A DNA stretch of 64,000 nt, taken from positions 1 through 64,000 of IMG/VR virus record IMGVR_UViG_3300007214_000060. One strand, 5' to 3'. A program made the position numbers and the translations under genes. This DNA comes from a virus. The notes under the pieces are model-generated. The model was not told the DNA's origin and did no database searches. It saw only the letters and a program-made list of their open reading frames with translations. Positions 11,430-62,655 of this stretch are shown here, in pieces (position 1 is the first letter of the stretch; the number at the start of each line of letters is the position of its first letter).

Positions 11430-12061
11430 GTTCTGTCTCCGTTTGATTCTGATCTGACTATAGTATAAAAATTTAAATTTTTAACAATTTTACCAGGCTC
11501 ATTATACAAGTAATTAATTTTTCTAAAATTATGCATTAATGCATTTTTGATCCAATGCAAATTACTACGTTTATTATGTAAAATAATATTTTGTAATACT
11601 TTTAATTTATTAAATGGTAAAATATATAAATTATCATCAATCGCAGCTCCCTCCAACTGAGATACAATATTAATGGTGGAGTAATCTATTACAATAGTAT
11701 CAAATTTAACTTTAAACAATAAGTCAAATCTAGTAATAATAACAATATCATAATTGATATTAGAATTTAGACATAAATCTATCACAGACACAATTTTTTG
11801 ATTGCGATGAGAGGAACCATCGTTTACAATTACAACTCCTTTTGGTCGGTAGTCCGAAACCAACTCGTCAACAATAGAGCTATCATCGGTGCATAAATAT
11901 GTATCAATTATCTTAAATATATTTTTAAAATAATCATATATATAGATATTATAATTATCTATAGAGTGTCTATAATCAATATCGACATATATTTCATTAA
12001 CAGGATTGTAATATTGTTTACAATAATGTTTACCAAAAAATAATATCGCTAGTCTATACAT
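11426..12061 (-). CDS. putative glycosyltransferase-like protein
   Basis: AILFFG.H, YDIVIITRFDL, IDDNLY. Confidence 0.5.
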   Translation of the reverse strand: MYRLAILFFGKHYCKQYYNPVNEIYVDIDYRHSIDNYNIYIYDYFKNIFKIIDTYLCTDDSSIVDELVSDYRPKGVVIVNDGSSHRNQKIVSVIDLCLNSNINYDIVIITRFDLLFKVKFDTIVIDYSTINIVSQLEGAAIDDNLYILPFNKLKVLQNIILHNKRSNLHWIKNALMHNFRKINYLYNEPGKIVKNLNFYTIVRSESNGDRT

Positions 12062-12098
12062 AGTTAGTTTACTTATTTATTGGTTCTTATTATAGGTT

Positions 12099-12695
12099 TT
12101 AATTCTTTACTTTCCCAAAAACACACACCCTGTCAACATCTGCGACAAGAACCATGTCTTTTCTCATTTTAATTTCTGTAGTTAGTAACCAAGGCCCACC
12201 ATCAATTTTGTTGTATAGGTCCCAGTCTGGCTTGCCGTGTGTTGAACAGTTATGAAAAGCTATAAATCCCGATTCATCTAGAACTAGTAAAGCTTGTTCG
12301 TAGTCTTTTTTAACAGCTTCGTATTTATGATTACCATCTATAAAAATTAAATCAAATTTTTCATTATTTTTATGTAAATCAGATAAAACTAATGAACTAT
12401 CTCCTTTAATAAGTCTAACGTCTGATCCAAGAAAATCTTGAACCATTTCTTTACTAAAAGTATTTCCGATATGAGTATTATTTTGATTCTTATGAAAATC
12501 CTCAAACAAATCTATCCCTGTACAATCAATACCCTTGGCATGATCTTTAACAAATTTGATAGTTCCCCCGCCGTATATTCCTACTTCCAAATATCTTGAC
12601 TGTTTTTTCCTTTGCAACGACATAGCGAAACAAGCTATTGTTCTCATCTCGCCAGCTGTTAGATCCAATCTACCTTTTGTTTTGTCTAAACTCAT
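12099..12695 (-). CDS. class I SAM methyltransferase (Methyltransf_24-like)
   Basis: YLEVGIYGG, GDS, FDLIFIDGNHKYEAV. Confidence 0.85.
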   Translation of the reverse strand: MSLDKTKGRLDLTAGEMRTIACFAMSLQRKKQSRYLEVGIYGGGTIKFVKDHAKGIDCTGIDLFEDFHKNQNNTHIGNTFSKEMVQDFLGSDVRLIKGDSSLVLSDLHKNNEKFDLIFIDGNHKYEAVKKDYEQALLVLDESGFIAFHNCSTHGKPDWDLYNKIDGGPWLLTTEIKMRKDMVLVADVDRVCVFGKVKN

Positions 12696-12707
12696 GCGAT
12701 CTTCCTT

Positions 12708-13328
12708 TCATAATAATTTATAATGTAAAGTACAATAATTTGATATTTTATCAATATCGCTAACAGATATTATTTGATAATTAAGTAAAATGCTACTAAT
12801 ATAATTATTGTTAGTATAACAAGCAAACTGAGCATCTTTTTGGGATCTATATTTTTTAGAAAATTTATTTCGATCACAGTGACGTATTTGAAGTATTAGT
12901 TCTGAAATTTTACTATTATTTAAATTAGTCAAAAAGCTGTCTAAATATTTTTGATCTGGAAAGTGTTGAATAACGGCAAAAGAACAAAACATATCAGCAT
13001 TAAGACTAGAAAAGTCTACAGGAACCAAAAAAAATTCTGTTTTATCCTTGAACAAAGACAAATTGTTGCTAGCCGCATCCAGTGATCTCTGAGCTATATC
13101 TATTCCTATATATTTTTTAATTAAAAAATTATTAAATAAATACATCCCCAAGTATCCAGCGCCGATTCCATAATCAACTATAACTTTATTTGTTGGGTTA
13201 AAATGAGTAAAATTATGAGCAAAGCTACTCAACAAATTATCAACACTAACCAACCATTTATCGGCGGTTATGTGAGCAAAAGTTTTATCGCATTTTTCCC
13301 AAAACGATCTTAATTTCTTCATAAGCAA
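12708..13328 (-). CDS. class I SAM methyltransferase
   Basis: VDYGIGAG, YIGIDIA, AVIQHFP. Confidence 0.75.
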   Translation of the reverse strand: MLMKKLRSFWEKCDKTFAHITADKWLVSVDNLLSSFAHNFTHFNPTNKVIVDYGIGAGYLGMYLFNNFLIKKYIGIDIAQRSLDAASNNLSLFKDKTEFFLVPVDFSSLNADMFCSFAVIQHFPDQKYLDSFLTNLNNSKISELILQIRHCDRNKFSKKYRSQKDAQFACYTNNNYISSILLNYQIISVSDIDKISNYCTLHYKLL

Positions 13329-13331
13329 TAG

Positions 13332-14171
13332 CTACTTTCTTAGACTATTTCTTTTTAACTGTTCTCCTTTAAGCAAGTGTCTGGGACCTATCGGTAGCGA
13401 CAAACCCTGCTCAATATCTCTTACGCCTTTTACTAATTTTAATAAACCAGACGGTTCCAGACTGCTCGTATGATCGCTACCCCACATAGTATGATCCAGA
13501 GTAATGTGTCTTTCTATCCAGGTAGCCCCCAACAAAACAGAAGCGAATGTTGTTACTAGTCCATATTCGTGTCCACTGTAGCCAACTTCTTTACCGACAT
13601 ATTTTTGTTTTAACCATTTAATATAATTTAAATTTAATTCGTCAACAGGACAAGGATAAGTACTATTAGTATGCATAATTATGTCTGGGTCGCAGGCGCG
13701 TACACATTTCTCTATTTCTTGCTCAGTACTCATCCCAGTACTTATAATTAATTTAGAAAAACTTTTACGAGCATATTTACACAGATCTAAATCTGTTATT
13801 AATGCTGATGGTATTTTTGTGATAGAATTATATTCTTTCATCACATCAACACTATCGGTATCCCACACACTAGCAAAAAAAATTATTCCGATATTATTAG
13901 AATAATCTATCAATTCAGCTATTTGTTTACTATTAAATTCTATCTTTTTTTTATAATCAAGATATGTCATATCGCCCCAAGGTGTTGAACGAATTTTATT
14001 TTTTTGATCTTCTGGAACACAAAGATCCGGATTTCTTTTTTGAATTTTTACATACTGACAACCAGCAATTTTTGCCAAAGAAATCAACTCTTTGCATATC
14101 TCCATGCTGCCATTATGATTGATGCCTATTTCAGCTATTATGTTTATTTTATTTAGTTTATTATGTGACAT
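13332..14171 (-). CDS. neuB: nonulosonic acid (N-acetylneuraminate/KDN) synthase, lacking C-terminal SAF domain
   Basis: IIAEIGINHNG, KIPSA, ISTGMS, HTNSTYP, GYSGHE, IERHITLD..WGSDH. Confidence 0.93.
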   Translation of the reverse strand: MSHNKLNKINIIAEIGINHNGSMEICKELISLAKIAGCQYVKIQKRNPDLCVPEDQKNKIRSTPWGDMTYLDYKKKIEFNSKQIAELIDYSNNIGIIFFASVWDTDSVDVMKEYNSITKIPSALITDLDLCKYARKSFSKLIISTGMSTEQEIEKCVRACDPDIIMHTNSTYPCPVDELNLNYIKWLKQKYVGKEVGYSGHEYGLVTTFASVLLGATWIERHITLDHTMWGSDHTSSLEPSGLLKLVKGVRDIEQGLSLPIGPRHLLKGEQLKRNSLRK

Positions 14172-14740
14172 AATCCATCCCCTTGTTCTTTAGCAAAAAA
14201 ATCACGCTCTCCCTCAGCATTATGTTTATTTTTATTCATTTTATGTGTAAATCCAATCAAATATATTGTGTCTTCTGGTGATTTATTTTGTTTCAAAAAT
14301 AAATATCCTATTAGTCCCATACTCATATTTGAAATTTTGTTATGTCTTTGGGACAAAAATTTTCTTGTTTCTACAGTTAACTTATTCTGCCCAAATCCCG
14401 GCATGTGACTAATTTCGTCTAAAGAAAAAGATGTGTGGTTTTTTATGTAGTCGTGAACAGTTTTTTTTTGTTGTTGGCGAATAGAGTCAGGATGTGGGTA
14501 TAAAAAAATCTTTTCAAATTTATCTTTAATTTTATCTATAATATGTAAACCACTATATGGAATCTTTCTATTAAAACTTCTTCTAGAAAAATGATATAGA
14601 CTATATTCATTTATATCTAAAGAATTCATTGGCAAGCAATGATTAAAAGTAACAACAATATCTGTTGCCGCAATATGTGGAATTTTATTAAACGTATTCA
14701 ATTTTATATCTGGATTATTTGCTATTAAATAATAATTCAT
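14153..14740 (-). CDS. divergent GT29-like sialyltransferase
   Basis: YLIANN..DIVVTFN, SMGLIG..IYLIGF, HNAEGE (H-x4-E). Confidence 0.45.
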   Translation of the reverse strand: MNYYLIANNPDIKLNTFNKIPHIAATDIVVTFNHCLPMNSLDINEYSLYHFSRRSFNRKIPYSGLHIIDKIKDKFEKIFLYPHPDSIRQQQKKTVHDYIKNHTSFSLDEISHMPGFGQNKLTVETRKFLSQRHNKISNMSMGLIGYLFLKQNKSPEDTIYLIGFTHKMNKNKHNAEGERDFFAKEQGDGLCHIIN

Positions 14741-14783
14741 ATATTAATATAATCCACGAATATGTATTAATACCAGAATAGTT

Positions 14784-14793
14784 GTGTATATTA
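14784..14793 (+). promoter_or_regulatory. GTGTATA motif, putative phage-sigma promoter
   Basis: Motif recurs in intergenic gaps upstream of gene blocks. Confidence 0.5.
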
Positions 14794-14809
14794 AAATGAA
14801 TAAGCCCTA

Positions 14810-15151
14810 ATGAAAGATACACCAAATATGATTAATCACACTATAGTAGCCGTGCTCATCATACTGTGCATAAATTCTATTATTATAGGCTACATCTTGT
14901 GCAAAACTATTCACTCTGATAAAACAATCCACTCCAATGTTGTAAAATTTGGTTCTCATAAAGACACCAATCCAAAAAGTAATAGTTTGCGCGTCAATGA
15001 ACCTCAAAATATTATTATAGATGATTCAAAATTTGTTGTTAGTCTTGACACAACAAAACTAGAAAAAAAGTATGATAGTCTTGGCAAAACAACGCAATCG
15101 TCAGAAAATATATCTGGATCGATTGATAAACTCAAAAAGATGAAAGGTTAA
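14810..15151 (+). CDS. N-terminally membrane-anchored small protein
   Basis: Hydrophobic helix TIVAVLIILCINSIIIGYILC; basic C-terminus; 2 nt before the actin gene. Confidence 0.65.
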   Translation: MKDTPNMINHTIVAVLIILCINSIIIGYILCKTIHSDKTIHSNVVKFGSHKDTNPKSNSLRVNEPQNIIIDDSKFVVSLDTTKLEKKYDSLGKTTQSSENISGSIDKLKKMKG

Positions 15152-15153
15152 AT

Positions 15154-16161
15154 ATGAGCAAAGGCTTAGATGTGGGTACTAGTTATATAGTTTTATCATC
15201 AGAAGATAACACTAGCGGTAAAATAATCTATAAGGATTTTAGGGATGCATTTTACGTTATAAAACCAACCACTCCTGTAGCAACTAAAATGATAGAAAAA
15301 GGATTAAACGGAAAAACATTTATAAAGGATACTGATGGATCTTTTATACTTTTGGGCCAAGACGCTATTGAAAAAGCAATAGAGAGAAACGATAACGCCA
15401 GAAGGCCAATGAGAAAAGGCGTCGTATCTCCTAAAGAAAAAGATAGTAGAAAAATTTTAGCTTTTATTCTTCAAGAGGTTTCTGGAAAACCAGACCACGC
15501 TGGAGAAAAAATAGTATTTTGTGTACCAGCGCAGCCAGTAGATATTCAAGATGAAGATTTTGATGTCGGATACCATGAAGATGTTGTTACCAGCATACTT
15601 TCTGATATTGGATATGATCCCAAAGCAATAAATGAGGCAGAAGCTCTGTGTTACGCTGAATTGGGTAATGATGATTACACTGGATTAAGTATAAGCTGTG
15701 GCAGCGGTATGCAAAATATATGCGTTATGTTGAATGGAGAACCGACAGTAATGTTATCTGTTACCCACTCAGGAGATTGGCTAGATAGAATGGTCGCAGT
15801 TGCTACAGGAGAAAAAGATAGTGTTGTTCAAGCAGAAAAAGAGAATGGTGACTTTACTATTGGAGAACCACATGACAACCCAGTACTAAATGCCATGTCT
15901 GCTTATTATGTTAGACTAATTGATTATGTCACAAAAAATATAAGCGTTGCGCTAGACGGGCATCCACTACTACCAAAATTTAAAGATCCATTAACCGTAG
16001 TAATAGCTGGTGGAACATCTTTGGCTAAAGGTTATGTCGAAATGTTTAGAAATAAATTAGTAGAAAACAATTTTCCATTACCAATAAAAGAAGTTAGACA
16101 CGCCAATGATCCTCTCCATGCTGTGAGTAAAGGTTGTTTGATAGCGGCAAAAGTTCTATGA
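15154..16161 (+). CDS. actin-like ATPase (volactin/MreB/MamK-type ASKHA fold)
   Basis: GLDVGTS (phosphate 1), INEAEA, SCGSGMQN (phosphate 2), EKE, IAGGTS (adenosine), AVSKG. Confidence 0.85.
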   Translation: MSKGLDVGTSYIVLSSEDNTSGKIIYKDFRDAFYVIKPTTPVATKMIEKGLNGKTFIKDTDGSFILLGQDAIEKAIERNDNARRPMRKGVVSPKEKDSRKILAFILQEVSGKPDHAGEKIVFCVPAQPVDIQDEDFDVGYHEDVVTSILSDIGYDPKAINEAEALCYAELGNDDYTGLSISCGSGMQNICVMLNGEPTVMLSVTHSGDWLDRMVAVATGEKDSVVQAEKENGDFTIGEPHDNPVLNAMSAYYVRLIDYVTKNISVALDGHPLLPKFKDPLTVVIAGGTSLAKGYVEMFRNKLVENNFPLPIKEVRHANDPLHAVSKGCLIAAKVL

Positions 16162-16937
16162 ATCATGACATTCTTATCGTATTGCCAGTCTGTTATTTGG
16201 ATATAGACCTTTGCGAACAGCTGATAGATAATATTGCATCACTAGACGATTATATAAATACTGATGTTTTACTAGTTTTTAAAGTTATTGATAAGAATAT
16301 TGATATTAAAAAAATTAATAATATAAAAACTAAATTAGACAAATTATTTAAATCGGTTGCTTTGATATATTGTGAGGAGCCAAAACAACTACCCTGGTCG
16401 ATGTCTGTTAGCAATACATTTACAAATGTAATGAGATATTTATTATTTATCAATAATGATAGACCATTTTATTTTATGGAGTCAGATAATACAATTATAA
16501 AACCTGGCTGGTATGAATTAATAAGAAAAGAATATTTTTCTGAAAATCATAAATTTTTAGGAAACATAGCTACAATAAATCCATATTATCAACCGAAGTA
16601 CGGAACAACCACACTTGTTGGCGGAGCAATATATCCAGCAAATTTTATTGAGTATATTGGTGATATTGTTCACATAGATTTTAATCAATCCAATATCGAT
16701 GACTATTATAGTGGACCGTTTGGCCTGTGCATATCCAAGCATGTGCTAAACGACAGCAAGCAATCGCGACACATGCAAAATTTGTGGGGTTCTTCAAAAT
16801 TTAACAAAATTACAAAAACAAACTACGAGTGCTATAAATCTAATACTGTTAGACAAATCGAAATAAACAACGACATCGCTATTTTTCATGGATGTAAAGA
16901 TGGATCCTTATTAAGGTGTTTAAAAAATGAAATCTAA
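16158..16937 (+). CDS. putative glycosyltransferase (GT-A-like)
   Basis: FYFMESD, GGAIYP, IFHGCKDGSL; start taken at the in-frame ATG. Confidence 0.45.
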   Translation: MNHDILIVLPVCYLDIDLCEQLIDNIASLDDYINTDVLLVFKVIDKNIDIKKINNIKTKLDKLFKSVALIYCEEPKQLPWSMSVSNTFTNVMRYLLFINNDRPFYFMESDNTIIKPGWYELIRKEYFSENHKFLGNIATINPYYQPKYGTTTLVGGAIYPANFIEYIGDIVHIDFNQSNIDDYYSGPFGLCISKHVLNDSKQSRHMQNLWGSSKFNKITKTNYECYKSNTVRQIEINNDIAIFHGCKDGSLLRCLKNEI

Positions 16938-17838
16938 TATAGGTTTGCTCCCATACACAAGAGAAGATATTTATGGGTTGAGTGTGTCTGATCCAGAATT
17001 TTATGGATGGGAAATTACTAAATTCAACATACCAGAGAGATGGTCAAAATCTATGGGGGAAGACACCGTTGTTGCTGTTATAGATACTGGCGTAGATATA
17101 TATCATGAAGACCTTAAATCAAATATATTAAATGGCAAAAATTTTGTAGAAAAAAATAAAGACCCAATAGATGTTTGTGGACACGGAACGCACGTCGCAT
17201 CCACAATAGCTGCGACAAAAAACGGAAAAGGAATGGTTGGAGTTTCGCCAAAAACAAAAATTATTCCTGTTAAAGCGCTAAATGATAGTGGTTATGGCCA
17301 TATGAAACATATCATTGAAGCGGTTGAGTGGTCAGCAAATATTGGTTGTGATTTTATCACCATGAGTCTTGGTTCAGTCGAAAACAATGACAAATTACTA
17401 AAAGTAATATCCTACGCTAATAAAAAAGGATCTGTAGTTTTTTGCGCTGCTGGTAATAGCGGAGAAGAAACAGATATAATGTTTCCAGCCAAGTATGAGA
17501 ATACAATATCTATTGGATCTATCGATCAAAATATGCAAAGAACAGATTTTACCTGTAGTGGTGATAGTCTAGATTTTTTAGCCCCAGGACACGAAATACT
17601 TGGTTGTGTACCCGGAAATAAGTATGCTATTATGAGTGGAACCAGTATGAGCAATCCATTCGCTGTTGGCTGCGCCTGTCTTGCTCTTAGTTATTTTAGA
17701 AAACAAAAACTTAACTACAAATTGAAAACATATATAGATTATATAGATTTATTCAAAAAAAATGCTATTAGTTTAACAGATAAAAAATATTGTGGCGTTA
17801 AGAAATTTGAAGGGTACGGGATAATAAATCCTATATGA
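16927..17838 (+). CDS. subtilisin-family (S8) serine protease
   Basis: VAVIDTG, GHGTHVA, AAGN, SGTSMSNP catalytic triad. Confidence 0.93.
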   Translation: MKSNIGLLPYTREDIYGLSVSDPEFYGWEITKFNIPERWSKSMGEDTVVAVIDTGVDIYHEDLKSNILNGKNFVEKNKDPIDVCGHGTHVASTIAATKNGKGMVGVSPKTKIIPVKALNDSGYGHMKHIIEAVEWSANIGCDFITMSLGSVENNDKLLKVISYANKKGSVVFCAAGNSGEETDIMFPAKYENTISIGSIDQNMQRTDFTCSGDSLDFLAPGHEILGCVPGNKYAIMSGTSMSNPFAVGCACLALSYFRKQKLNYKLKTYIDYIDLFKKNAISLTDKKYCGVKKFEGYGIINPI

Positions 17839-17845
17839 CAACAGC

Positions 17846-17874
17846 TTGACCGTTTTGGATCCACATAGTATAAT
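17846..17874 (+). promoter_or_regulatory. sigma70-type promoter
   Basis: TTGACC-N17-TATAAT in intergenic gap. Confidence 0.75.
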
Positions 17875-17901
17875 TAGTTAGTTATCCTACATTTTACAAC
17901 A

Positions 17902-18096
17902 ATGAACAATTTCGACAACAACAGAAAAGACGCAAGAAGACAAAAGTTTAACTTCACGAAAAATAAGAAATACGAAATTTCTGAAGAACAAAAATTTGTG
18001 TCTAAGTCTAAAAAACAGTTAAAGAAAAAAATTGAGGAAATAAAGTCCGAAGAATTATGGGAAGACTGGGAAGATCCAGAACAAATGGATAATTAG
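17902..18096 (+). CDS. hypothetical small charged protein
   Basis: ORF directly after the promoter. Confidence 0.6.
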   Translation: MNNFDNNRKDARRQKFNFTKNKKYEISEEQKFVSKSKKQLKKKIEEIKSEELWEDWEDPEQMDN

Positions 18097-18099
18097 TAA

Positions 18100-18327
18100 A
18101 TGAAATATTTAGAAGAATTATCTCATGGAGATACGTTTTTATTAGAAGAAAATGTTTTTATATTGACATCAGATTACAAATCAACAAATAAAAAATTGTG
18201 CTATTCTATGTTAACTGGATTTCCAAGATGGTTAGACGATAAGACGGTTGTTGAGCTATGTCCGGTATATACTCTGGATAAAGACAATAATGTTGTAGCT
18301 GTAAAACCGACGCCCAAAAATGACTAG
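18100..18327 (+). CDS. hypothetical protein
   Basis: ORF in operon. Confidence 0.6.
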   Translation: MKYLEELSHGDTFLLEENVFILTSDYKSTNKKLCYSMLTGFPRWLDDKTVVELCPVYTLDKDNNVVAVKPTPKND

Positions 18328-18550
18328 ATTATTTGTTTTTATAAAAAGTTTATGGTGGCATATTTGGGCAGGATTTCCAAAGTCTACTCAGGATGAAATA
18401 AATTATAGATTTTCTATTTGTAATAGATGTGATTTTTTAGATACTAAGCAATCTATATGTTTACAATGCGGATGTAATATTAGTAATAGAAAAAAATTTT
18501 TAAACAAATTAGCATGGAAAGATCAAAAGTGCCCAATAGATAAATGGTAG
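18320..18550 (+). CDS. small Cys-rich protein
   Basis: RFSICNRC...CLQCGC...KCPIDKW. Confidence 0.6.
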   Translation: MTRLFVFIKSLWWHIWAGFPKSTQDEINYRFSICNRCDFLDTKQSICLQCGCNISNRKKFLNKLAWKDQKCPIDKW

Positions 18551-18599
18551 TACTGAAAATCAAAACTCACTCCTATTCTTACAAAATAAAACTTAAATC

Positions 18600-19157
18600 A
18601 TGACAGCTATCAAACACAATCGAATCATCACACTAAACGATAGAGATATTTTCGAGTGCTCAAAACAAAGAGTCAAAGCAGCAATCAACGGCAGCAGCGT
18701 AATCATACCGCATGTTTGCAACAATATTGGTGTTTTTGGTGGTGGATTCACTGGCGCTATAGATAAAATGTATCCAATAGTAAAAAACAATTATGAATTG
18801 CTAGGAAAAACTTTTTTACAAAAAAATCCAGGTCACACCCAATTTATTTCTGTTTTGCAGGACGATGGTAGTAAGCATAAACTAATATTTGCCAATATGA
18901 TAGCGCAAAATGGAATTATTGGTCAAAAAAATAAAAGACCAATCAACTACGCTTTTCTAGTAAAAAGTATGATAAATGTCAAAACATATATTTTATCTAA
19001 TTTCGATTCTGAGTCTCAGATTGAAATCCATGCGCCCAAGTTTGGTAGCGGTTTAGCTGGTGGAAACTGGTCATTTATAGAGAACATAATCGAAGACGTT
19101 TGGGGTCAAATTCCTGTTTATATCTACAATTATAAATCAAAACTAAGATCATCATGA
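18600..19157 (+). CDS. macrodomain (ADP-ribose binding/hydrolase) protein
   Basis: IPHVCNNIGVFGGGF, ANMIAQ, IHAPKFGSGLAGGNW. Confidence 0.85.
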   Translation: MTAIKHNRIITLNDRDIFECSKQRVKAAINGSSVIIPHVCNNIGVFGGGFTGAIDKMYPIVKNNYELLGKTFLQKNPGHTQFISVLQDDGSKHKLIFANMIAQNGIIGQKNKRPINYAFLVKSMINVKTYILSNFDSESQIEIHAPKFGSGLAGGNWSFIENIIEDVWGQIPVYIYNYKSKLRSS

Positions 19158-29216: not shown

Positions 29217-29226
29217 GTGTATACAA
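29217..29226 (+). promoter_or_regulatory. GTGTATA motif
   Basis: Intergenic, upstream of 29268. Confidence 0.5.
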
Positions 29227-30232: not shown

Positions 30233-32974
30233 ATGTCTACAAATCAACATACTATTATTCAATTACGTCGTGGAACAGCCGCTGAATGGAGCGCCAGCAG
30301 CCCTCAACCGGGTGGAGAGATTCTTAAGCTTGGTGAACCAGGTTACGAAAAAGATACCGGTAAGCTAAAAATAGGAGATGGTTCAACTCCCTGGAATAGT
30401 TTGCCTTATGTTGCTATTAGTGGTGGCGGAAGCACAATAGCCGCTGCTGTAGAATGGACTTCCAACCATACGACTGCCGACGGAACCAGGTATTTGGCTG
30501 GTGATCTTGTTTATAGTGCAGGATATTTGTATAGAGCTAAATTTGATAATGAAAGTGAGCCGGTTTCGAACACAACATACTGGCAAAATGTTGGTGCCGG
30601 CTACAGACTCAATATAGATGGGAGGGACATACAAAATATCCCATATCCAGTGACAAGTGTTAATGGTCAGACCGGAGAAGTAGAGATTAGTGGTGGTGGA
30701 GGTCCCTCAAATTTATCAGATCTAGAAGATGTACTTATTCAGGATTTATCTAATAATCAAATATTGAAATTCAATGGATCAGATTGGATAAATGCTCAGG
30801 ATGGGTTGGGTAACATAACAGTAGACGGTACCCCTGGAACAACATATAAGGGTTTTCAGGCTAGCTATGGTAGGGTTTATTCTAATAGCTCTAGCGAAGA
30901 GCTTAATTTAAGTAAAATTATTATCTATAAAGAAACCCCAACCCCGGTAACAACAACAATAGATCCAACAAGTAGCAACGATACTTTTCAAGTAGAAGGA
31001 TTAAATCCAAGTAATATAGTAGCTATGTTTGTGCTGTACGGGGATACTAACGGACCAAAAGAAATAGAAACACTTAAAAGTTTTACTGAAAGCGTTATTG
31101 ATAACGTGTTGTTAGATGGCGGCATTGAGGGATCGTTCAACACAATATCGGATATGAGATCCGCATTCTACAATAGCGCATCAGCATTAACAACAACTGC
31201 TGACGGACTATATACTCAGTTTCAATTTTTTAATAACACATATACAGTGACAACTACCGGTGGAACTGGTTTTAATCTTAGTATATACTTTGAAAGAAAT
31301 CCAACAAACGGTTTATTAATAAATCCGTCAATATCAGATGGTGGTTATGGATGGACTAATGGGTCAAACACAACCATACCAGGAACATCTATTGGTGGGG
31401 TTAGTCCGGATGATGATATTGCGATAACAATTGATGGCGTAGATGTGTCTGGTAGTGCTACCGCCATTACCATTGAACCCGGAGCGGTCATACCAGGAAT
31501 ATGGCCAACAAATAGTATTAGCGATGGAGGAGAAGACCAATACGATACTGCTAATTATATTAGTACAAACTTAGCGTCTAATATTAATTATGACGGCGGT
31601 CAAATCATAAGTGATGGAACAAGTAAGTTTGGTTACGGATCATCATATTGTTTCACATATATTCCTGGAATTTTTGGCTTACTCGTTACTGGAAATAGCG
31701 CCAACTATGTTAGAACAAGCGGAAATAGCGGTGCTGATGGTAGTAGTTTAACTGATTGCGGAGACCTATACTCCCCCTCCACGTCCGCACAAACTTTCGA
31801 CAATGCTATAAATCACATAAATTTAACGGGTACTCCGTATGCTAGTGGGCCAGTAGATTTTGTTCACACGGATAACGGTACAGAAATTGATATTTTAATT
31901 GCTGATGATGGATCAGGATCAGGCGTTGGAATAACAAGAAATAGTAATCAAGGAATATTTAATCCATATAGAGAAGAGGGTTGGAGTTCTAGCATTAGTC
32001 CAGACGGAACGTTGTGGAATACTGACGGGTGGTATAATTTATCGAATGTAACAACTAGATCGTATTCAAACCTATATACCGCATTTGGTTCCGGCGGACT
32101 AGGAAACAAAATAGTTGGAACACAGTGCGTTATGTATTTACCAGATAACGGGAAATACTACACTGTAAAATTTACACAATGGACACAAAATGGAAATGGT
32201 GGTGGATTTGCTTATACAAGAAGAGAGTTGGATATTTCGCAATTACAAGAGGGTATAAGATTTGCTGATGGAACACGACTAACATCTGCTTCTGGTGTGG
32301 GTCCATTAAAATCCACAGCCGCTAGCAATAGACGAATAGAAGAAGCTGTTGGATACAAGGTTGTTAATGTTACTTCTAGAAATCCTGAAACAATATCAAC
32401 AACATTATCAAGATCTGTTACTAATGATTATGGTATATGGATAGATATTCCCACAAGTCTTATTGATGAAATAATCGATAATCCTACAGCTAATGGGGCA
32501 GTAGCTGATACTTTCTATTTTAGCTTGGACAATAACACATGGTACAAATGGAGTGGTAGCACAGGATTTTCTGGTAGTGAGAGGAACTACAGCTTACAAG
32601 GCGATCCGTCTTTAACTTACAATGCTGGAGACACAGTTTATTTTCGTTATGATACTGGTGGATCTCCTGTAGTTTGGTGGGATGCAGCAGAACTGCCGAG
32701 CGGTTCAACCAATTTTAGAGGAGCTATTATAGATTATCATGCTTATAGTGGAGAAGCAACAATAATCGGGACTATTCAGATTGTGGATGATAGTGGAGAA
32801 AAACACATATCACATACCGAAGTAGCTAGTGGTAGCACAGATAGTGAAAACGACGATTTATGGCTCGTACAAAATGAGGGTACTATTAGCTATCGTAGAA
32901 TAGATGGTGAAAGTAAAACCCTTAAAGTTCACTGGAGCGCTAAAGTATTTTATGGTAGTGAATTTTACGACTAA
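30233..32974 (+). CDS. tail/head fibre protein with Mtd-N/hyaluronidase-type N-terminal anchor
   Basis: IQLRRGTAAEW...GEPGYEKDTGKLKIGDG..WNSLPY; VTSVNGQTGEV; LSDLEDV..QILKFNG..W. Confidence 0.8.
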   Translation: MSTNQHTIIQLRRGTAAEWSASSPQPGGEILKLGEPGYEKDTGKLKIGDGSTPWNSLPYVAISGGGSTIAAAVEWTSNHTTADGTRYLAGDLVYSAGYLYRAKFDNESEPVSNTTYWQNVGAGYRLNIDGRDIQNIPYPVTSVNGQTGEVEISGGGGPSNLSDLEDVLIQDLSNNQILKFNGSDWINAQDGLGNITVDGTPGTTYKGFQASYGRVYSNSSSEELNLSKIIIYKETPTPVTTTIDPTSSNDTFQVEGLNPSNIVAMFVLYGDTNGPKEIETLKSFTESVIDNVLLDGGIEGSFNTISDMRSAFYNSASALTTTADGLYTQFQFFNNTYTVTTTGGTGFNLSIYFERNPTNGLLINPSISDGGYGWTNGSNTTIPGTSIGGVSPDDDIAITIDGVDVSGSATAITIEPGAVIPGIWPTNSISDGGEDQYDTANYISTNLASNINYDGGQIISDGTSKFGYGSSYCFTYIPGIFGLLVTGNSANYVRTSGNSGADGSSLTDCGDLYSPSTSAQTFDNAINHINLTGTPYASGPVDFVHTDNGTEIDILIADDGSGSGVGITRNSNQGIFNPYREEGWSSSISPDGTLWNTDGWYNLSNVTTRSYSNLYTAFGSGGLGNKIVGTQCVMYLPDNGKYYTVKFTQWTQNGNGGGFAYTRRELDISQLQEGIRFADGTRLTSASGVGPLKSTAASNRRIEEAVGYKVVNVTSRNPETISTTLSRSVTNDYGIWIDIPTSLIDEIIDNPTANGAVADTFYFSLDNNTWYKWSGSTGFSGSERNYSLQGDPSLTYNAGDTVYFRYDTGGSPVVWWDAAELPSGSTNFRGAIIDYHAYSGEATIIGTIQIVDDSGEKHISHTEVASGSTDSENDDLWLVQNEGTISYRRIDGESKTLKVHWSAKVFYGSEFYD

Positions 32975-57247: not shown

Positions 57248-58294
57248 ATGATAATAACATATCTGAGAAGCAGCTCATATGGAACCCACTGTATGTGCGA
57301 ACAGCAATACTTCATAGAGTACGTGCTTGGATACAGAAGCCCATCAAATAAAAAAGCTGACAAAGGAACCATAGTACACAAAGTTCTCGAAATTTTAGCC
57401 GGTATAAAATTAAGTCAGCAAAATAATGAATTAGAATATATTGATGATATTTTATCCAATATAAGCGTTGATAACTATGATTTAGACAATATTACGGAAC
57501 GCGTTTACAATTACTATACGTCACAGTTTAAACACCACCAATGGGAACTCAAAGATTTTAAAGATTGTCACAAGTGGGTCTATAAAGCCCTCACTGACCA
57601 CAATGGTGTCTTTGACCCAAGATCAAGAACCATACTGATGCCGGAGCAGCACTTTGATATAGTGATCGATAAACCTTGGGCAGATTATAGGTACGAAACA
57701 AAAGATGGTGCTATTGAGGGAAAATTGGCTATTAAGGGAACAATTGATCTTATTACAAAAGTTAATGATTCCACCCTAGAGGTAATAGACTGGAAAACCG
57801 GTAGACGACTAGACTGGGCAACAGGAGAAGAAAAAACTATTGAAAAACTGTATAAAGATCCTCAGCTCAAGATATACCATTATGCGCTCAGTAAATTGTA
57901 TCCACAATATGACCATATAATAATGTCCATCAATTTTATAAATGATGGTGGAGCATTTAGTATGTGTTTCGATAAGTCAGATTTATCTAGCACAGAAGAC
58001 CTGATAAGAAAAAAGTTTGAAGAAATCAAATCGTGTAAAAAACCAAGATTAAGTAAAACATGGAAATGTAGCAAGCTCTGTCATTTTGGAAAAAACACGT
58101 TTCAAAATAATAACTCGGTTTTGCCTATAATAGAGTATAGAGATGGTCAAGCCTGTAAAAAGGGAGATTATATGACGGTGTGTGAACAAATCAGACACGA
58201 TATAGAGCTTAACGGTATGAAGTCGGTGGTTGACACATACACGACCAAAGGTTATACTGTTGGTAAGTACAAAGCTCCGGGAAGCACAGAATGA
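57248..58294 (+). CDS. PD-(D/E)xK RecB/Cas4-like exonuclease
   Basis: C..QY, GTIVH..LE, GTIDL, IDWKTG, QL.IY, C..LC...C. Confidence 0.85.
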   Translation: MIITYLRSSSYGTHCMCEQQYFIEYVLGYRSPSNKKADKGTIVHKVLEILAGIKLSQQNNELEYIDDILSNISVDNYDLDNITERVYNYYTSQFKHHQWELKDFKDCHKWVYKALTDHNGVFDPRSRTILMPEQHFDIVIDKPWADYRYETKDGAIEGKLAIKGTIDLITKVNDSTLEVIDWKTGRRLDWATGEEKTIEKLYKDPQLKIYHYALSKLYPQYDHIIMSINFINDGGAFSMCFDKSDLSSTEDLIRKKFEEIKSCKKPRLSKTWKCSKLCHFGKNTFQNNNSVLPIIEYRDGQACKKGDYMTVCEQIRHDIELNGMKSVVDTYTTKGYTVGKYKAPGSTE

Positions 58295-60186
58295 GTTATA
58301 GCGTATTGCATTGTCATTCGACATACTCTCTGTTGGATGGACTTTCTAAGCCTGATCAGATAGCTTCAAGATGCAAAGAAATAGGTGTTAATAATTGCGC
58401 CTTAACGGATCACGGCAACATATCCGGGGCTGTTAAATTTTATTCTGCTATGAAGCGAGCTGGAATAAAACCTATTTTAGGGTGTGAGCTATATATTTGC
58501 AACGATCATTCGTCAATTAAAGAAACATCAAATAGAGATCTAACTCATTTTATAGTACTAGCAAAAAATTATAATGGCTGGAAGAGTCTAATTAAATTAG
58601 TATCAGAATCAAATAAAATTGATAATTTCTATCACAAACCAAGACTAAGTTTACAGCAGCTATCTGAGTTTGCTAATGGGCAGAATCTTATAGCAATAGT
58701 CGGTCATCTTGGCTCATTATTAGCAGACAAAATTATAATAAATAATTCTATTGTTGGTAATTGGAAAGACATTGGAGTTGAAACAATAAATAAAATTAAA
58801 GAAATTTTTGGTGATAATAATTTGTTTTTGGAAGCACAGTTAATGGACAAGGAAAATATACCAATACAAACAGAGCTAACAGAATGTATTAGAGAACTTG
58901 GTAAATTAACAAACACAAAAGTTATCTGCACTCCGGACGCTCATTATTGCAGGAAAGAGGACGCTGTTGATCAAAGAGTTTTGTTGTGCAATAATCTGAA
59001 AACAACTTTCCCTGAAATAAATAGAAAAATTAGTAATAACGAAGACGTACCAATGTCTTGCTTTTTCTTATCTGATAATTATCACATATTGTCTTACGAG
59101 GAAATTAAAAATTTACATACCCAAGAAGAAATAGACAATACGAACTATGTAGCATCTTTGATAGACGAATACGACATATTGAGTGGGCCAAACCTACCTA
59201 AATATCAATGCCCAGATGATCTAGATCCGGATGAATATTTAAGACACCTTTGTAGAAAAGGATGGAAAGAAAAGATAGAATCAAAAATTCCAAAGGAAGA
59301 TCAAACAAATTACGTTGACAGGATCAAACACGAACTAGATGTTTTGCAAAAGGCTAAATTAAGTAGTTACTTCTTAATTGTACAGGATATTCTGAGTTTT
59401 GTAAAAAGTAATGGGTGGCTACCTTCTCCTGGTAGGGGTAGCGCAGCTGGTTGCCTTGTGTCCTATTTAATAGGTATTACTAATATAGATCCTATAAAAT
59501 ATGATTTATTATTTGAAAGATTTTATAATGTTGGAAGATCCTCTGGAAACAAAATTTCTTTACCAGATATTGATGTTGATGTGCCGATATTAAAAAGAGA
59601 ATATGTAATAGAATATATAAAAAATAAGTATGGATCAGATAAGGTTTCTCAGATGATAACGTTTAATACTATGAAAGGAAGAGGTGCGTTAAAAGACGTA
59701 CTAAGAGTTTACGGGAATATTAGTTTTGAAGAGATGAACAATATAACAAAATATATTCCAGACGAAGCTAAAATTTCTGATGAGCTTCAAGAAATGAAAG
59801 AGGAAACTGGAGAAGCTTCAATTATAAGATGGGCTTTAGAAAATAATGGAGACAAACTAAAAGAATGGTGTTACTTAGACGAAAATAATGAGCTTCAAGG
59901 CCCACTGTCTAAAAGATTTGAGCAAGCAATGCGATTGGAGGGAACAAAAACTAATCAGTCTAAACACGCCGCCGGTATAGCTGTTAGCTCCATGCCATTG
60001 CACGAGTTGTGTCCTATGATATATGATACAAAGACACACCAACCCATCGCGGGTATGGAGATGCAAGACCTGGAGAGTATTGGGATCATTAAACTAGATA
60101 TCCTCGGCATAGCCTTGCTAGATAAAATTATGAATATATCTGAATTACTAAAAGAAGGAGTAGAATATGTCAACCAAAAAATTTAA
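58291..60186 (+). CDS. dnaE: DNA polymerase III alpha, N-terminal part (PHP, palm, thumb)
   Basis: LHCHS.YSLLDG, TDHG, DAHY, GRGSAAG, FERF, PDIDVD, HAAG, KLDILG. Confidence 0.93.
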   Translation: MSYSVLHCHSTYSLLDGLSKPDQIASRCKEIGVNNCALTDHGNISGAVKFYSAMKRAGIKPILGCELYICNDHSSIKETSNRDLTHFIVLAKNYNGWKSLIKLVSESNKIDNFYHKPRLSLQQLSEFANGQNLIAIVGHLGSLLADKIIINNSIVGNWKDIGVETINKIKEIFGDNNLFLEAQLMDKENIPIQTELTECIRELGKLTNTKVICTPDAHYCRKEDAVDQRVLLCNNLKTTFPEINRKISNNEDVPMSCFFLSDNYHILSYEEIKNLHTQEEIDNTNYVASLIDEYDILSGPNLPKYQCPDDLDPDEYLRHLCRKGWKEKIESKIPKEDQTNYVDRIKHELDVLQKAKLSSYFLIVQDILSFVKSNGWLPSPGRGSAAGCLVSYLIGITNIDPIKYDLLFERFYNVGRSSGNKISLPDIDVDVPILKREYVIEYIKNKYGSDKVSQMITFNTMKGRGALKDVLRVYGNISFEEMNNITKYIPDEAKISDELQEMKEETGEASIIRWALENNGDKLKEWCYLDENNELQGPLSKRFEQAMRLEGTKTNQSKHAAGIAVSSMPLHELCPMIYDTKTHQPIAGMEMQDLESIGIIKLDILGIALLDKIMNISELLKEGVEYVNQKI

Positions 60187-60361
60187 AGATATTAATATTG
60201 ATCAAGTTTTTACATATAAAAACACACAATATAAAAAAATTCCAGAAAAAAAGATAAGTTGCTGCAAGCGACTGAACGCTTGTGCTGTTGGGTCTAAAAA
60301 AACAGAGATACAAATCAATCCACTAGAAGATGTAGAGGTTGATGATAATGAACAAAAATAA
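60167..60361 (+). CDS. small hypothetical protein between dnaE halves
   Basis: AGGAG RBS; overlaps neighbours. Confidence 0.6.
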   Translation: MSTKKFKDINIDQVFTYKNTQYKKIPEKKISCCKRLNACAVGSKKTEIQINPLEDVEVDDNEQK

Positions 60362-61034
60362 AATTTGCGTATTTGATATGGAGACCGACGGATCCGACCC
60401 CAAAATATGCAGTCCGGTACAATTGGCTGCTGTAATGGTGGATCCAGTAAATTTGGAGATAATAGAAGATTCAGAATTCAACATTAAACTAAAACCAGAA
60501 ACGCTTGAGCAGGATGAGTCTTATCAGTATACTACTGACATCTTAGATTTTCACGCAAAGGTCAAAGGCTGTTCAAAAGATGATATTTTAAGAGACTGGA
60601 AAACATATCAATCCCAACAACACGGATGGGATATGTTTGTAAATTATCTAGATAAATATCATACAAGATCAACTAAAAAAAGTCAATTTAGTGCGCCAAT
60701 AGCCGCTGGGTATAACATCTATAGGTTCGATTTGGTTATAGTTAATAGATTAAGTAATAAGTACAACAACACCAATAAAGAAGGTCAAACAGATCTGTTT
60801 TATCCTAGAGATGTTGTTGACATGATGAATTTAGTTTTTTATTGGTTTGAAAATAGCAACGACTTAAAAAGCTACACCTTGGATAATCTTCGTGATTATC
60901 TTGGTATCAGTAAAGATGGTGCGCACGACGCAATGAAAGACGTATATGATACTGCTAATATATTAATTAGATTTTTAAGACTACATAGAAATTTATCTCA
61001 AAAAATTAAGTTTAAATCTGCTTTTCAAAAATAA
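60339..61034 (+). CDS. DEDDh 3'-5' exonuclease (DnaQ/epsilon-like)
   Basis: FDMET, GYN..FD, AHDA..DV. Confidence 0.85.
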   Translation: MMIMNKNKICVFDMETDGSDPKICSPVQLAAVMVDPVNLEIIEDSEFNIKLKPETLEQDESYQYTTDILDFHAKVKGCSKDDILRDWKTYQSQQHGWDMFVNYLDKYHTRSTKKSQFSAPIAAGYNIYRFDLVIVNRLSNKYNNTNKEGQTDLFYPRDVVDMMNLVFYWFENSNDLKSYTLDNLRDYLGISKDGAHDAMKDVYDTANILIRFLRLHRNLSQKIKFKSAFQK

Positions 61035-61035
61035 A

Positions 61036-62655
61036 ATGTCAAATAGCCAGTTCACATATCCTTGCGGATGTTGTTTTGCGACGGATGTGGTTGATAACAA
61101 AAAAAGTTTAGTATTTGATACAAATATAGATAATATTAATCTTGGTTGTTCTAAAACTTGGGATATTATTGCGTCTGGAAATACAAAAGGAATTTTTCAA
61201 TTAGAATCTAGGCTAGGAAGATCCATAGCAAAAAAATTGAAACCAGAAAATATAGATCAACTATCTGCTCTTATAGCAATTTTAAGACCAGGAACACTAG
61301 AGGCTTATAGAGATGGTAAAAGTGTAACACAACACTATATAGATAAAAAAAATGGTTTAGAAAGCATTGATTATTTTCACCCATCTTTGGAACCTATACT
61401 TAAAAGCACTCTCGGGGAGTTAATCTATCAGGAGCAAGCCATGAGAATAGCGTCCGATATAGCCGGATTTACTTTACAGGAGGCCGATGAACTAAGAAAA
61501 GCTATTGGTAAAAAATTAGCAGATAAAATGGCTCAGGTCAAAGAAAAGTTTATAGACGGATGCAACAAACTAAAAATAGTGACTAATGACGAGGCTCTTC
61601 AAATTTTTGGTTGGATAGAGAAATCACAAAGATATTTATTCAATGCTAGTCACAGCGTTAGCTATGCAATGAACGCGTACCTGTCAGCCTATGCAAAATC
61701 TCATTTTACAAAAATATTTTTTGCATCCTATTTAAAATTTGCTAAAGATAAAATGAACCCTCAGGAAGAAATTAAAGCATTAGTTCAAAACGCAAACGAG
61801 ATGGACATAACAGTTAGCACTCCAGATATACGATTAATGAATCAAAACTTTGTTTTAAAACATAATAAGATCTATTTTGGATTAACAGATATCAAAGGTT
61901 TCGGAGATTCTGTTTTTAGTAAATTAAAAAATATCATAGATTCTACAAAAATTAACCCGTACGAATCATGGCTAACAACACTGTTTAATGTATTGCTAAA
62001 CATCAACTCAGTAGCAGCAAAATCTCTAATAGAGAGTGGCTCGGTGAGTTTTCTTGGTAAATCAAGAAATAGTATGTTATTTGAACTAAATATAGCGCAA
62101 AAATTAACCAATAAAGAAATAGAGTTTATTTTGGGCATATTAGATAATGCAAAAACATTAAAGGATTGTTTGTGTCTGTTGAAAAATAAACCAAGAACAA
62201 CAAAAAATAGACTCAAAGCTATAGATGATTTAATCGTATCTATAAATAATCCACCATATTCACTACAGGATACGCCGGAATGGATAGCAGATGTTGAAGA
62301 CAGTTGCCTTGGGTGCTCGATAACTTGCTCAAAGCTAGATCTTTATGACATAAGTATGTGCAATTGTTCTTGTAGAGACTTTAAAAATGGAAAACAAAAA
62401 AGCGTTATAATAGGCGGTGAAATAGATTATATTAATGTTACAAAAACAAAGACTGGAAAATCAAAAGGATCTGATATGTGTTTCGTTAATTTAACTGATC
62501 AGACCGGTAGCATTGATAACGTTATATTTTTTCCTGAACAATATAAAAAACATAAAAATTTGTTATTCCAAGGAAATATCGTTATATTATTTGGAGATAG
62601 AAGCAAAAGCGGCGACGGCCTAATCGTAGAAAAAGCATATGTAGCTAGAACTTGA
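61036..62655 (+). CDS. dnaE: DNA polymerase III alpha, C-terminal part (fingers, HhH, OB fold)
   Basis: T.GIFQLES, AILRPG, IYQEQ, ADELRKAIGKK, FNASHS.SY, FGL..IKG.G, M.F..L.D.TG. Confidence 0.92.
   Translation: MSNSQFTYPCGCCFATDVVDNKKSLVFDTNIDNINLGCSKTWDIIASGNTKGIFQLESRLGRSIAKKLKPENIDQLSALIAILRPGTLEAYRDGKSVTQHYIDKKNGLESIDYFHPSLEPILKSTLGELIYQEQAMRIASDIAGFTLQEADELRKAIGKKLADKMAQVKEKFIDGCNKLKIVTNDEALQIFGWIEKSQRYLFNASHSVSYAMNAYLSAYAKSHFTKIFFASYLKFAKDKMNPQEEIKALVQNANEMDITVSTPDIRLMNQNFVLKHNKIYFGLTDIKGFGDSVFSKLKNIIDSTKINPYESWLTTLFNVLLNINSVAAKSLIESGSVSFLGKSRNSMLFELNIAQKLTNKEIEFILGILDNAKTLKDCLCLLKNKPRTTKNRLKAIDDLIVSINNPPYSLQDTPEWIADVEDSCLGCSITCSKLDLYDISMCNCSCRDFKNGKQKSVIIGGEIDYINVTKTKTGKSKGSDMCFVNLTDQTGSIDNVIFFPEQYKKHKNLLFQGNIVILFGDRSKSGDGLIVEKAYVART

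Follow-up and report, generated by a model that had tools for sequence, protein, structure and literature searches.

A volactin-family actin paired with a predicted single-helix membrane adaptor in large freshwater phages

Known phage cytoskeletons are few, comprising the tubulin PhuZ, TubZ and the DNA-bound actin AlpC of one prophage, and the volactin polymer family was named only in 2024, in an archaeon. Filaments of volactin from Haloferax volcanii (VolA, encoded by HVO_2015) are dynamically unstable, growing and collapsing rapidly; they extend across the cytoplasm and touch the membrane with their tips alone (PMC10869688), and the gene adjoins HVO_2016, which encodes a four-helix, CdpA-like membrane protein (PMC12126565). 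Here we describe a pair of genes for a volactin-family actin and a small membrane protein, hereafter the adaptor, in a stretch of 64,000 nucleotides (the window) that forms the first 64 kb of the 93,396-bp IMG/VR virus record IMGVR_UViG_3300007214_000060 (CheckV completeness about 68%), from an uncultured large freshwater phage. An earlier note on this DNA, made from its letters alone, had proposed both open reading frames (ORFs) with 2 nt between them, and we confirmed them on the sequence:

14810–15151, plus strand: adaptor (membrane-protein) gene, 113 aa; short outside N terminus, one membrane helix, disordered linker and conserved cytoplasmic C-terminal domain
15154–16161, plus strand: volactin-family actin gene, 335 aa; assigned from Pfam PF25216, an AlphaFold 2 (AF2) model, structure comparison and a tree

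The phage actin matches Pfam PF25216 (Volactin) with 209.4 bits against a cut-off of 35 (E 1.2e-61), residues 1–332 aligning on positions 1–321 of the 321-position profile, and a six-frame search with the same profile had the same outcome as the protein-level search. Among 14 control genomes, only that of H. volcanii passed the PF25216 cut-off. MreB_Mbl (PF06723) reached 26.1 bits on the phage actin, below its cut-off of 27 and over residues 65–133 only; the true MreB proteins of Binatia and Terriglobia scored 481–491 bits against that profile. The Pfam search gave no ParM/StbA match at E values up to 0.1, PHROGs held no family for the actin, and a PDB sequence search returned nothing significant. 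The earlier note had proposed a likeness to volactin, and not to ParM or MreB, from a set of motifs, and Pfam bears this out; the motifs are all in the translation (MSKGLDVGT, ARRPMRKG, PAQPVD, GYHED, GYDPKAINE, ELGNDDYTGLSISCGSGMQN and GDWLD). VolA shares the Pfam family over the full length and has the same motifs (S-x-G-x-G and GDW.D), and both genes adjoin a gene for a membrane protein (PMC12126565). The two differ in setting: VolA is archaeal with a role in cell shape, whereas the phage protein is viral and falls in a tight, phage-only clade. The partners differ too, that of the phage having one helix, 113 aa and no known family, and HVO_2016 four helices, a distinction drawn from its description.

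Structure prediction places the protein among the actins. The AF2 model, built from an alignment of 51 diverse relatives, has a mean predicted local distance difference test (pLDDT) value of 96.3 and a predicted template-modelling score of 0.93. Foldseek ranked MreB, MamK and BeeR at the top of the solved structures, and the phage actin gave Z-scores of 28.1 with the MamK filament (root mean square deviation 2.8, 291 residues aligned), 27.7 with BeeR, about 26.5 with MreB and about 25.5 with F-actin. These matches span residues 1–335 at 13–22% identity. The model thus predicts an actin fold with four subdomains and intact nucleotide motifs, the same four-subdomain fold that is seen in MamK, BeeR and MreB (Z-scores of 26–28 over about 280–300 residues, at 16–22% identity), all of which form filaments. 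The nucleotide motifs lie as follows:

15169–15180, plus strand: phosphate-1 motif D6-V-G8-T9; D6 and G8 invariant and T9 nearly so in 51 diverse family members
15694–15717, plus strand: phosphate-2 motif S181-C-G183-S-G185-M-Q-N188; S181, G183, G185 and N188 invariant in alignment A1
16009–16017, plus strand: adenosine motif G286-G287-T288; G286 and G287 invariant and T288 nearly so

The catalytic glutamate, E161, is likewise invariant in the family alignment (51 diverse relatives). MreB, ParM and actin have an aspartate at the start of the phosphate-2 motif; the volactin family has a serine there instead, family-wide, and judged from the alignment this serine is a family trait and no defect of the phage copy. 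Together with the predicted viral structure library, in which the best matches were mostly Hsp70-like proteins, the missing aspartate could be taken to mean that the protein is a non-polymerising ASKHA ATPase, chaperone or kinase-like, that works with the membrane protein. We regard this as extremely improbable, as the serine is invariant throughout the volactins and the first-described of them forms filaments in cells (PMC10869688). The top 50 solved-structure matches are all MamK, BeeR, MreB, actin or Arp chains, over all 335 residues, with no enzyme or chaperone among them, and Pfam found neither a sugar-kinase family match nor an Hsp70 substrate-binding domain in the phage actin. Clustering with non-polymerising ASKHA enzymes, which the earlier note had named as the contrary outcome, was not what we found: the nearest solved folds are filament formers.

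A FastTree phylogeny of 138 sequences, rooted on two true MreB proteins and with H. volcanii VolA left out, sets the volactin family off from MreB by a long branch and nests the phage clade inside the family. The same long branch parts the family from the MreB proteins of those very bacteria that carry a volactin homologue. The phage actin itself sits in a tight clade of viral loci plus one unlabelled representative. The analysis supports the claim that the actin is phage-encoded.

The actin and the adaptor are inherited together. IMG/VR contains 49 related loci (actin identity 52–76%), and a family profile finds the adaptor directly upstream of the actin gene in 48 of them; the remaining locus, L048, has a weak adaptor match with the same KL..LKKK tail. 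The upstream membrane gene is therefore syntenic in homologues, a point on which the earlier note had let its proposal depend. In most loci the gap between the two genes is 1–30 nt. The remaining genes around the pair in the window all lack conservation across the 49 loci, which leaves adaptor plus actin as their only conserved unit. Over 25 loci, which range in GC content from 0.29 to 0.60, the median identity is 75% for the actin versus 30% for the adaptor (41% for the adaptor's C-terminal domain); by this measure the actin is strongly constrained and the adaptor far less. Divergence of the two proteins is correlated (r = 0.73). Small single-helix membrane proteins are common in phages, and this one might be a mere neighbour with a role of its own, holin-like or in superinfection exclusion, that never contacts the actin. 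The kept adjacency, with its short gap, in loci of 29–60% GC where all other neighbours change, and the correlated divergence both speak against this, and it strikes us as very improbable.

The adaptor has a simple architecture. Modelled alone by AF2, it shows a confident membrane helix, a disordered linker and a terminal helix, so that the single membrane helix and basic tail (KLKKMKG) described in the earlier note are real. Its elements are:

14828–14917, plus strand: membrane helix, residues 7–36, with hydrophobic core 12–30 (AF2 pLDDT 93–95; best 19-residue Kyte–Doolittle mean 2.85)
15008–15148, plus strand: conserved cytoplasmic domain, residues 67–113 (IIDDSKFV...LG...KLKKMKG; alignment A4)
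15110–15145, plus strand: last helix, residues 101–112 (AF2), the predicted actin-binding element

Across the family, the aligned adaptors carry G[YF]xxGR where the helix ends on the cytoplasmic side; a variable linker leads from there to a conserved domain, about 46 residues long (IDDxKFV...LG...KL..LK). In alignment A4, G92, L108 and K112 are invariant and I70, D71 and V76 nearly so. All 29 of the 29 family members carry more lysine plus arginine on the C-terminal side of the helix than on its N-terminal side (2.31 versus 0.21), and by the positive-inside rule the N terminus is therefore outside and the C terminus inside, which makes the conserved domain cytoplasmic. Only 0–13 residues lie outside the membrane across the adaptors. 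With almost nothing beyond the membrane, the protein can serve only as an anchor. Neither Pfam nor PHROG has a family for it, and the protein atlas placed it in virus-only clusters of hypothetical proteins with scores below 0.9. A profile search gave 302 relatives of 96–131 aa; all of them lack a Pfam domain, and some come from contigs longer than 200 kb. A search for longer, fused forms found none, which is weak evidence in favour of mere neighbours, and the N-terminal extensions of distant actin-family members did not match the adaptor profile.

We next modelled the actin together with adaptor residues 62–113, in three runs and with three controls. The complex scored 0.66 (0.65–0.66 over the three runs) and the best of the three controls 0.00, a difference that again tells against mere neighbours. 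Of the solved complexes, 58 of 80 attain this mark; of the mismatched pairs, 2 of 110 do. These counts apply only approximately, since our own alignments went into the prediction. The runs share at least 75% of their contacts, and adaptor pLDDT in the complex is at least 62. In the model, the most confident contacts join adaptor residues 101–112 to actin residues 167–175, 194–196 and 318–335, and adaptor residues 79–99 run in extended form along actin strand 23–30 and helix 100–109. The two predicted walls of the docking site are:

15652–15678, plus strand: actin residues 167–175, one cleft wall; least-error contacts at 167, 168, 171, 174 and 175 with adaptor residues 104, 107 and 108
16120–16155, plus strand: actin C-terminal helix, residues 323–334, the other cleft wall (AF2); 326, 329, 330, 333 and 334 contact adaptor residues 101–109

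Y167 lies six residues after the catalytic E161, as Y143 lies six after Q137 in actin, a correspondence that we take to mark the cleft between subdomains IA and IIA. By this spacing, the last helix of the adaptor is predicted to dock in the IA/IIA cleft of the phage actin. WH2 helices occupy this cleft in actin and the ParR tail does so in ParM, and the next subunit along a strand also enters it; in 2012, Gayathri et al. reportedly placed the C terminus of ParR there on ParM.

We consider it reasonably probable that the pair comprises a polymerising volactin-family actin and a dedicated membrane adaptor, whose helix sits in the cleft and holds filament ends or monomers at the membrane, and that the system organises the infected cell. 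In outline, the 335-aa protein would polymerise as a volactin-family actin, and the 113-aa adaptor would span the cytoplasmic membrane of the host and expose just a few residues on the outside. A flexible linker would carry the adaptor's C-terminal domain into the cytoplasm, where the last helix would enter the IA/IIA cleft and the extended stretch before it would lie along subdomain IA. Because the cleft also takes the next strand subunit in actin and ParM, an adaptor bound there would hold or nucleate filament ends (or monomers) at the membrane. The outcome would be dynamic, cytoplasm-spanning and tip-anchored filaments like those imaged for Haloferax volactin; contact with the membrane by the tips, as seen for VolA (PMC10869688), is what a cleft-binding adaptor would be predicted to produce.

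Several points weigh against this proposal. The complex score is a measure of model confidence, and since solved ParM–ParR and actin–WH2 complexes exist, resemblance to them may account for part of it. Conservation at the interface does not exceed that of the remaining actin residues (0.81 versus 0.83 in the phage clade), which would also suit mere neighbours. The most conserved stretch of the adaptor, IDDxKFV (residues 69–76), lies outside the confident contacts, and so the adaptor probably does something more, beyond this model. The membrane is the only cargo identified, and the tree that places the phage actin inside the family was built without VolA.

Alternatively, the pair could be a DNA-positioning machine in the manner of ParMRC or AlpAC whose actin moves or segregates phage genomes, for example in a carrier or pseudolysogenic state, with the membrane protein as one of several adaptors. 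ParM–ParR–parC likewise sets an actin and a small adaptor side by side, the site of ParR on ParM, as given above, matches that predicted for the adaptor's terminal helix, and the IDDxKFV stretch would be free for another partner. ParM–ParR–parC, however, has centromere repeats and a DNA-binding adaptor; the phage pair lacks both, its cargo is the membrane and its actin is not of the ParM family. We found no tandem or centromere-like repeats within positions 12000–19000 or in the spacer ahead of the pair, and no DNA-binding family in the adaptor or the neighbouring genes by Pfam and PHROG searches, which agrees with the earlier note that no centromere-like array or ParR-type gene is adjacent. 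The known phage and plasmid actins act on DNA, and in prophage CGP3 of Corynebacterium glutamicum AlpC and AlpA link phage DNA to filaments (PMC4446434). There, too, a phage actin is co-transcribed with an upstream adaptor that binds it, and efficient phage replication depends on the system (PMC4446434). AlpA binds phage DNA, whereas the adaptor described here is membrane-anchored, and the actin families differ, as judged from description; CGP3 is a temperate actinobacterial prophage, whereas the present clade consists of 200–300 kb phages with terminal repeats. As the only co-inherited partner of the phage actin is anchored in the membrane, DNA positioning is in our judgement quite unlikely.

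Tethered filaments might instead take over the host envelope, altering cell shape or size or blocking division in the manner of MreB or FtsA. Volactin has a part in cell-shape transitions (PMC10869688), and a pull-down recovered it with the division anchor CdpA (PMC12126565). MreB is among the closest solved folds of the phage actin, and cellular homologues of that actin in Terriglobia and Binatia adjoin bactofilin, a shape-related polymer. With 0–13 residues outside, however, the adaptor cannot reach wall-building enzymes as RodZ does, and identities of 13–22% to MreB, MamK and actin make co-polymerisation with host proteins unlikely. The phage actin sequence also has no N-terminal amphipathic or other membrane-binding extension of its own. 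An envelope role therefore seems unlikely to us.

On the proposal of membrane-anchored filaments, the filaments would most likely organise the infected cell by placing replicating DNA or assembling particles; the earlier note had suggested remodelling of the host cell or placement of phage assembly, in a role akin to that of PhuZ. PhuZ, of the Chimalliviridae jumbo phages, is likewise a polymer of large phages that organises the infected cell (PMC7950403, PMC8314001), but it has a tubulin fold and no membrane adaptor, whereas the phage protein described here has an actin fold and comes with one. Four relatives of the window's phage are rated complete, at 297,894, 243,821, 197,026 and 198,312 bp, three of them with direct terminal repeats, and a fifth large relative of 204,651 bp is about 60% complete. 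All five carry exactly one volactin gene each, and none of these five genomes has a tubulin/FtsZ (PF00091) match. In a clade of 200–300 kb phages without tubulin, the actin would be the counterpart of the PhuZ spindle. More tentatively, we suggest that this cosmopolitan aquatic clade may run an actin cytoskeleton of its own, with filaments that start from or end on a dedicated one-helix adaptor at a barbed-end-like cleft, which would be a third kind of phage cytoskeleton beside the tubulin PhuZ and the DNA-bound actins of AlpC and ParM type.

Our literature search found no description of a volactin-type actin in phages or of a membrane-anchored phage actin, and the jumbo-phage reviews consulted mention none; the pair joins a known polymer family to a new adaptor family in a new setting. 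The volactin-family gene proves to be strongly conserved and present as a single copy in big freshwater phages, an uncultured group that is large and widespread. If the filaments and their tether are real, large phages use actin, and not tubulin alone, to organise bacterial cells, and the pair is a minimal two-protein system for coupling a bacterial-type actin to membrane. The short conserved adaptor peptide might then be a possible general anchor of volactin-type filaments in cells, and the same tip-anchoring logic would explain how volactin filaments contact the membrane in archaea.

Beyond these loci the family is large. A word-indexed search returned 1,694 relatives of the actin, the best 120 of which share 74–91% identity with it, measure about 333 aa and come from contigs that reach 230 kb, and an exhaustive search of 50% representatives gave 956 family members, many with N-terminal extensions. 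Deposited phage genomes (50,697 records searched by tblastn) contain only a distant copy, at 31–33% identity, in two uncultured huge phages of 485 and 595 kb, and scans of viral contigs with two distant representatives found the same clade or nothing. Cellular homologues, at 33–34% identity, occur in Terriglobia, Binatia and Rokubacteria, and the Terriglobia and Binatia carriers also have an ordinary MreB. The adaptor profile found nothing next to the homologues of Terriglobia, Binatia and the two huge phages. Close matches (66–73%) also stand on short contigs (L051–L056) of metagenome-assembled genomes (MAGs) labelled Chitinophagia, Alphaproteobacteria, Flavobacteriales, Thermoplasmatales and Saccharibacteria; we rejected these labels as a guide to the host, because contigs so short are most likely mis-binned phage DNA.

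Some relatives have features of their own. In the huge phage LR745208 (485 kb), a 207-aa ORF on the plus strand (L063:3334–3957) precedes the distant volactin-family gene; it has no membrane helix and ends in a similar basic tail (...AMGALKAVRKK...), and it may be a soluble adaptor with the same kind of docking helix. A 695-aa relative outside the window (P0123, 54% identical) has an insertion of about 360 aa directly before the GDW motif. The insertion, which starts with Cys and ends with HN followed by Cys, resembles an intein with a homing-endonuclease-like middle, and its site lies where the protein is most conserved. In one Terriglobia genome and one Binatia genome, a bactofilin gene (PF04519, 92.6 and 73.5 bits) follows the cellular volactin-family gene in convergent orientation, and the two may form a cellular two-polymer module:

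L057, 3971–5032: volactin-family actin; L057, 5142–5591, minus strand: bactofilin
L058, 3893–5023: volactin-family actin; L058, 5020–5769, minus strand: bactofilin

In the window, a 69-nt divergent spacer (14741–14809) parts the pair from a minus-strand block of sugar-pathway genes. The following features flank or join the two genes:

14784–14790, plus strand: GTGTATA, possible −10-like promoter element, 26 nt before the adaptor start, in the spacer
15142–15147, plus strand: GAAAGG, Shine–Dalgarno-like sequence of the actin gene, within the 3′ end of the adaptor gene, 7–12 nt before the ATG
16158–16937, plus strand: downstream gene, 259 aa, whose ATG overlaps the actin stop codon (ATGA)

The adaptor stop and the actin start are 2 nt apart (TAA-at-ATG), and the placement of GAAAGG inside the adaptor gene suggests translational coupling of the actin gene. 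The 259-aa gene in turn overlaps the next one, for an S8 subtilase protease (16927–17838); by this run of overlaps and the 2-nt gap, the pair heads a tightly packed operon. The 259-aa protein has no Pfam or PHROG family, and in none of the 49 related loci does a homologue adjoin the actin gene; coupled though it is here, the gene stands outside the conserved module. An S8 protease follows the actin gene at a distance of 1–5 kb in 10 of the 49 loci.

The GTGTATA that the earlier note saw ahead of the pair is present. It is not enriched in the window (8 copies versus 10.5 expected), but three of its five plus-strand copies lie in ORF-free DNA (no ORF of at least 60 aa), which makes up 3.3% of the window, and a fourth comes 7 nt downstream of a stop codon, with the next start 51 nt further on. 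Each of the five closest loci (L006, L009, L011, L017 and L038) has GGTGTA[AT]A at −26 to −29 of the adaptor start, against a background of 3.8% per 80 nt, and often just after a terminator-like hairpin. Scans for consensus sigma-70 promoters and terminators were at chance level. GTGTATA or GGTGTAAA also occurs on the plus strand in short spacers 50–70 nt before gene starts, at window positions 29217, 30178, 39253 and 54687, one of them serving the tail-fibre gene that starts at 30233. A phage promoter element shared with the actin operon is plausible.

The wider record has the gene content of a phage, with tail-fibre-like proteins, ribonucleotide reductase, a UvsX-like recombinase, a DnaB-like helicase, a primase and a DnaE-type polymerase; no tRNA genes were found in it. 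Cultured phages are all distant, with polymerase identities of at most 34%. The phage occurs in lakes and aquaculture ponds. On the minus strand at record positions 76521–93395 (L061:12521–19999 and L062:3–9395), a single open frame, at least 5,600 codons long, is cut short where the record ends, beside four proteins of 550–920 aa without a PHROG family. Within the window, at 58291–62655, the DnaE-type polymerase is split over two genes (631 and 539 aa), and the 231-aa gene between the halves matches the RNase_T exonuclease family (PF00929, 36.5 bits).

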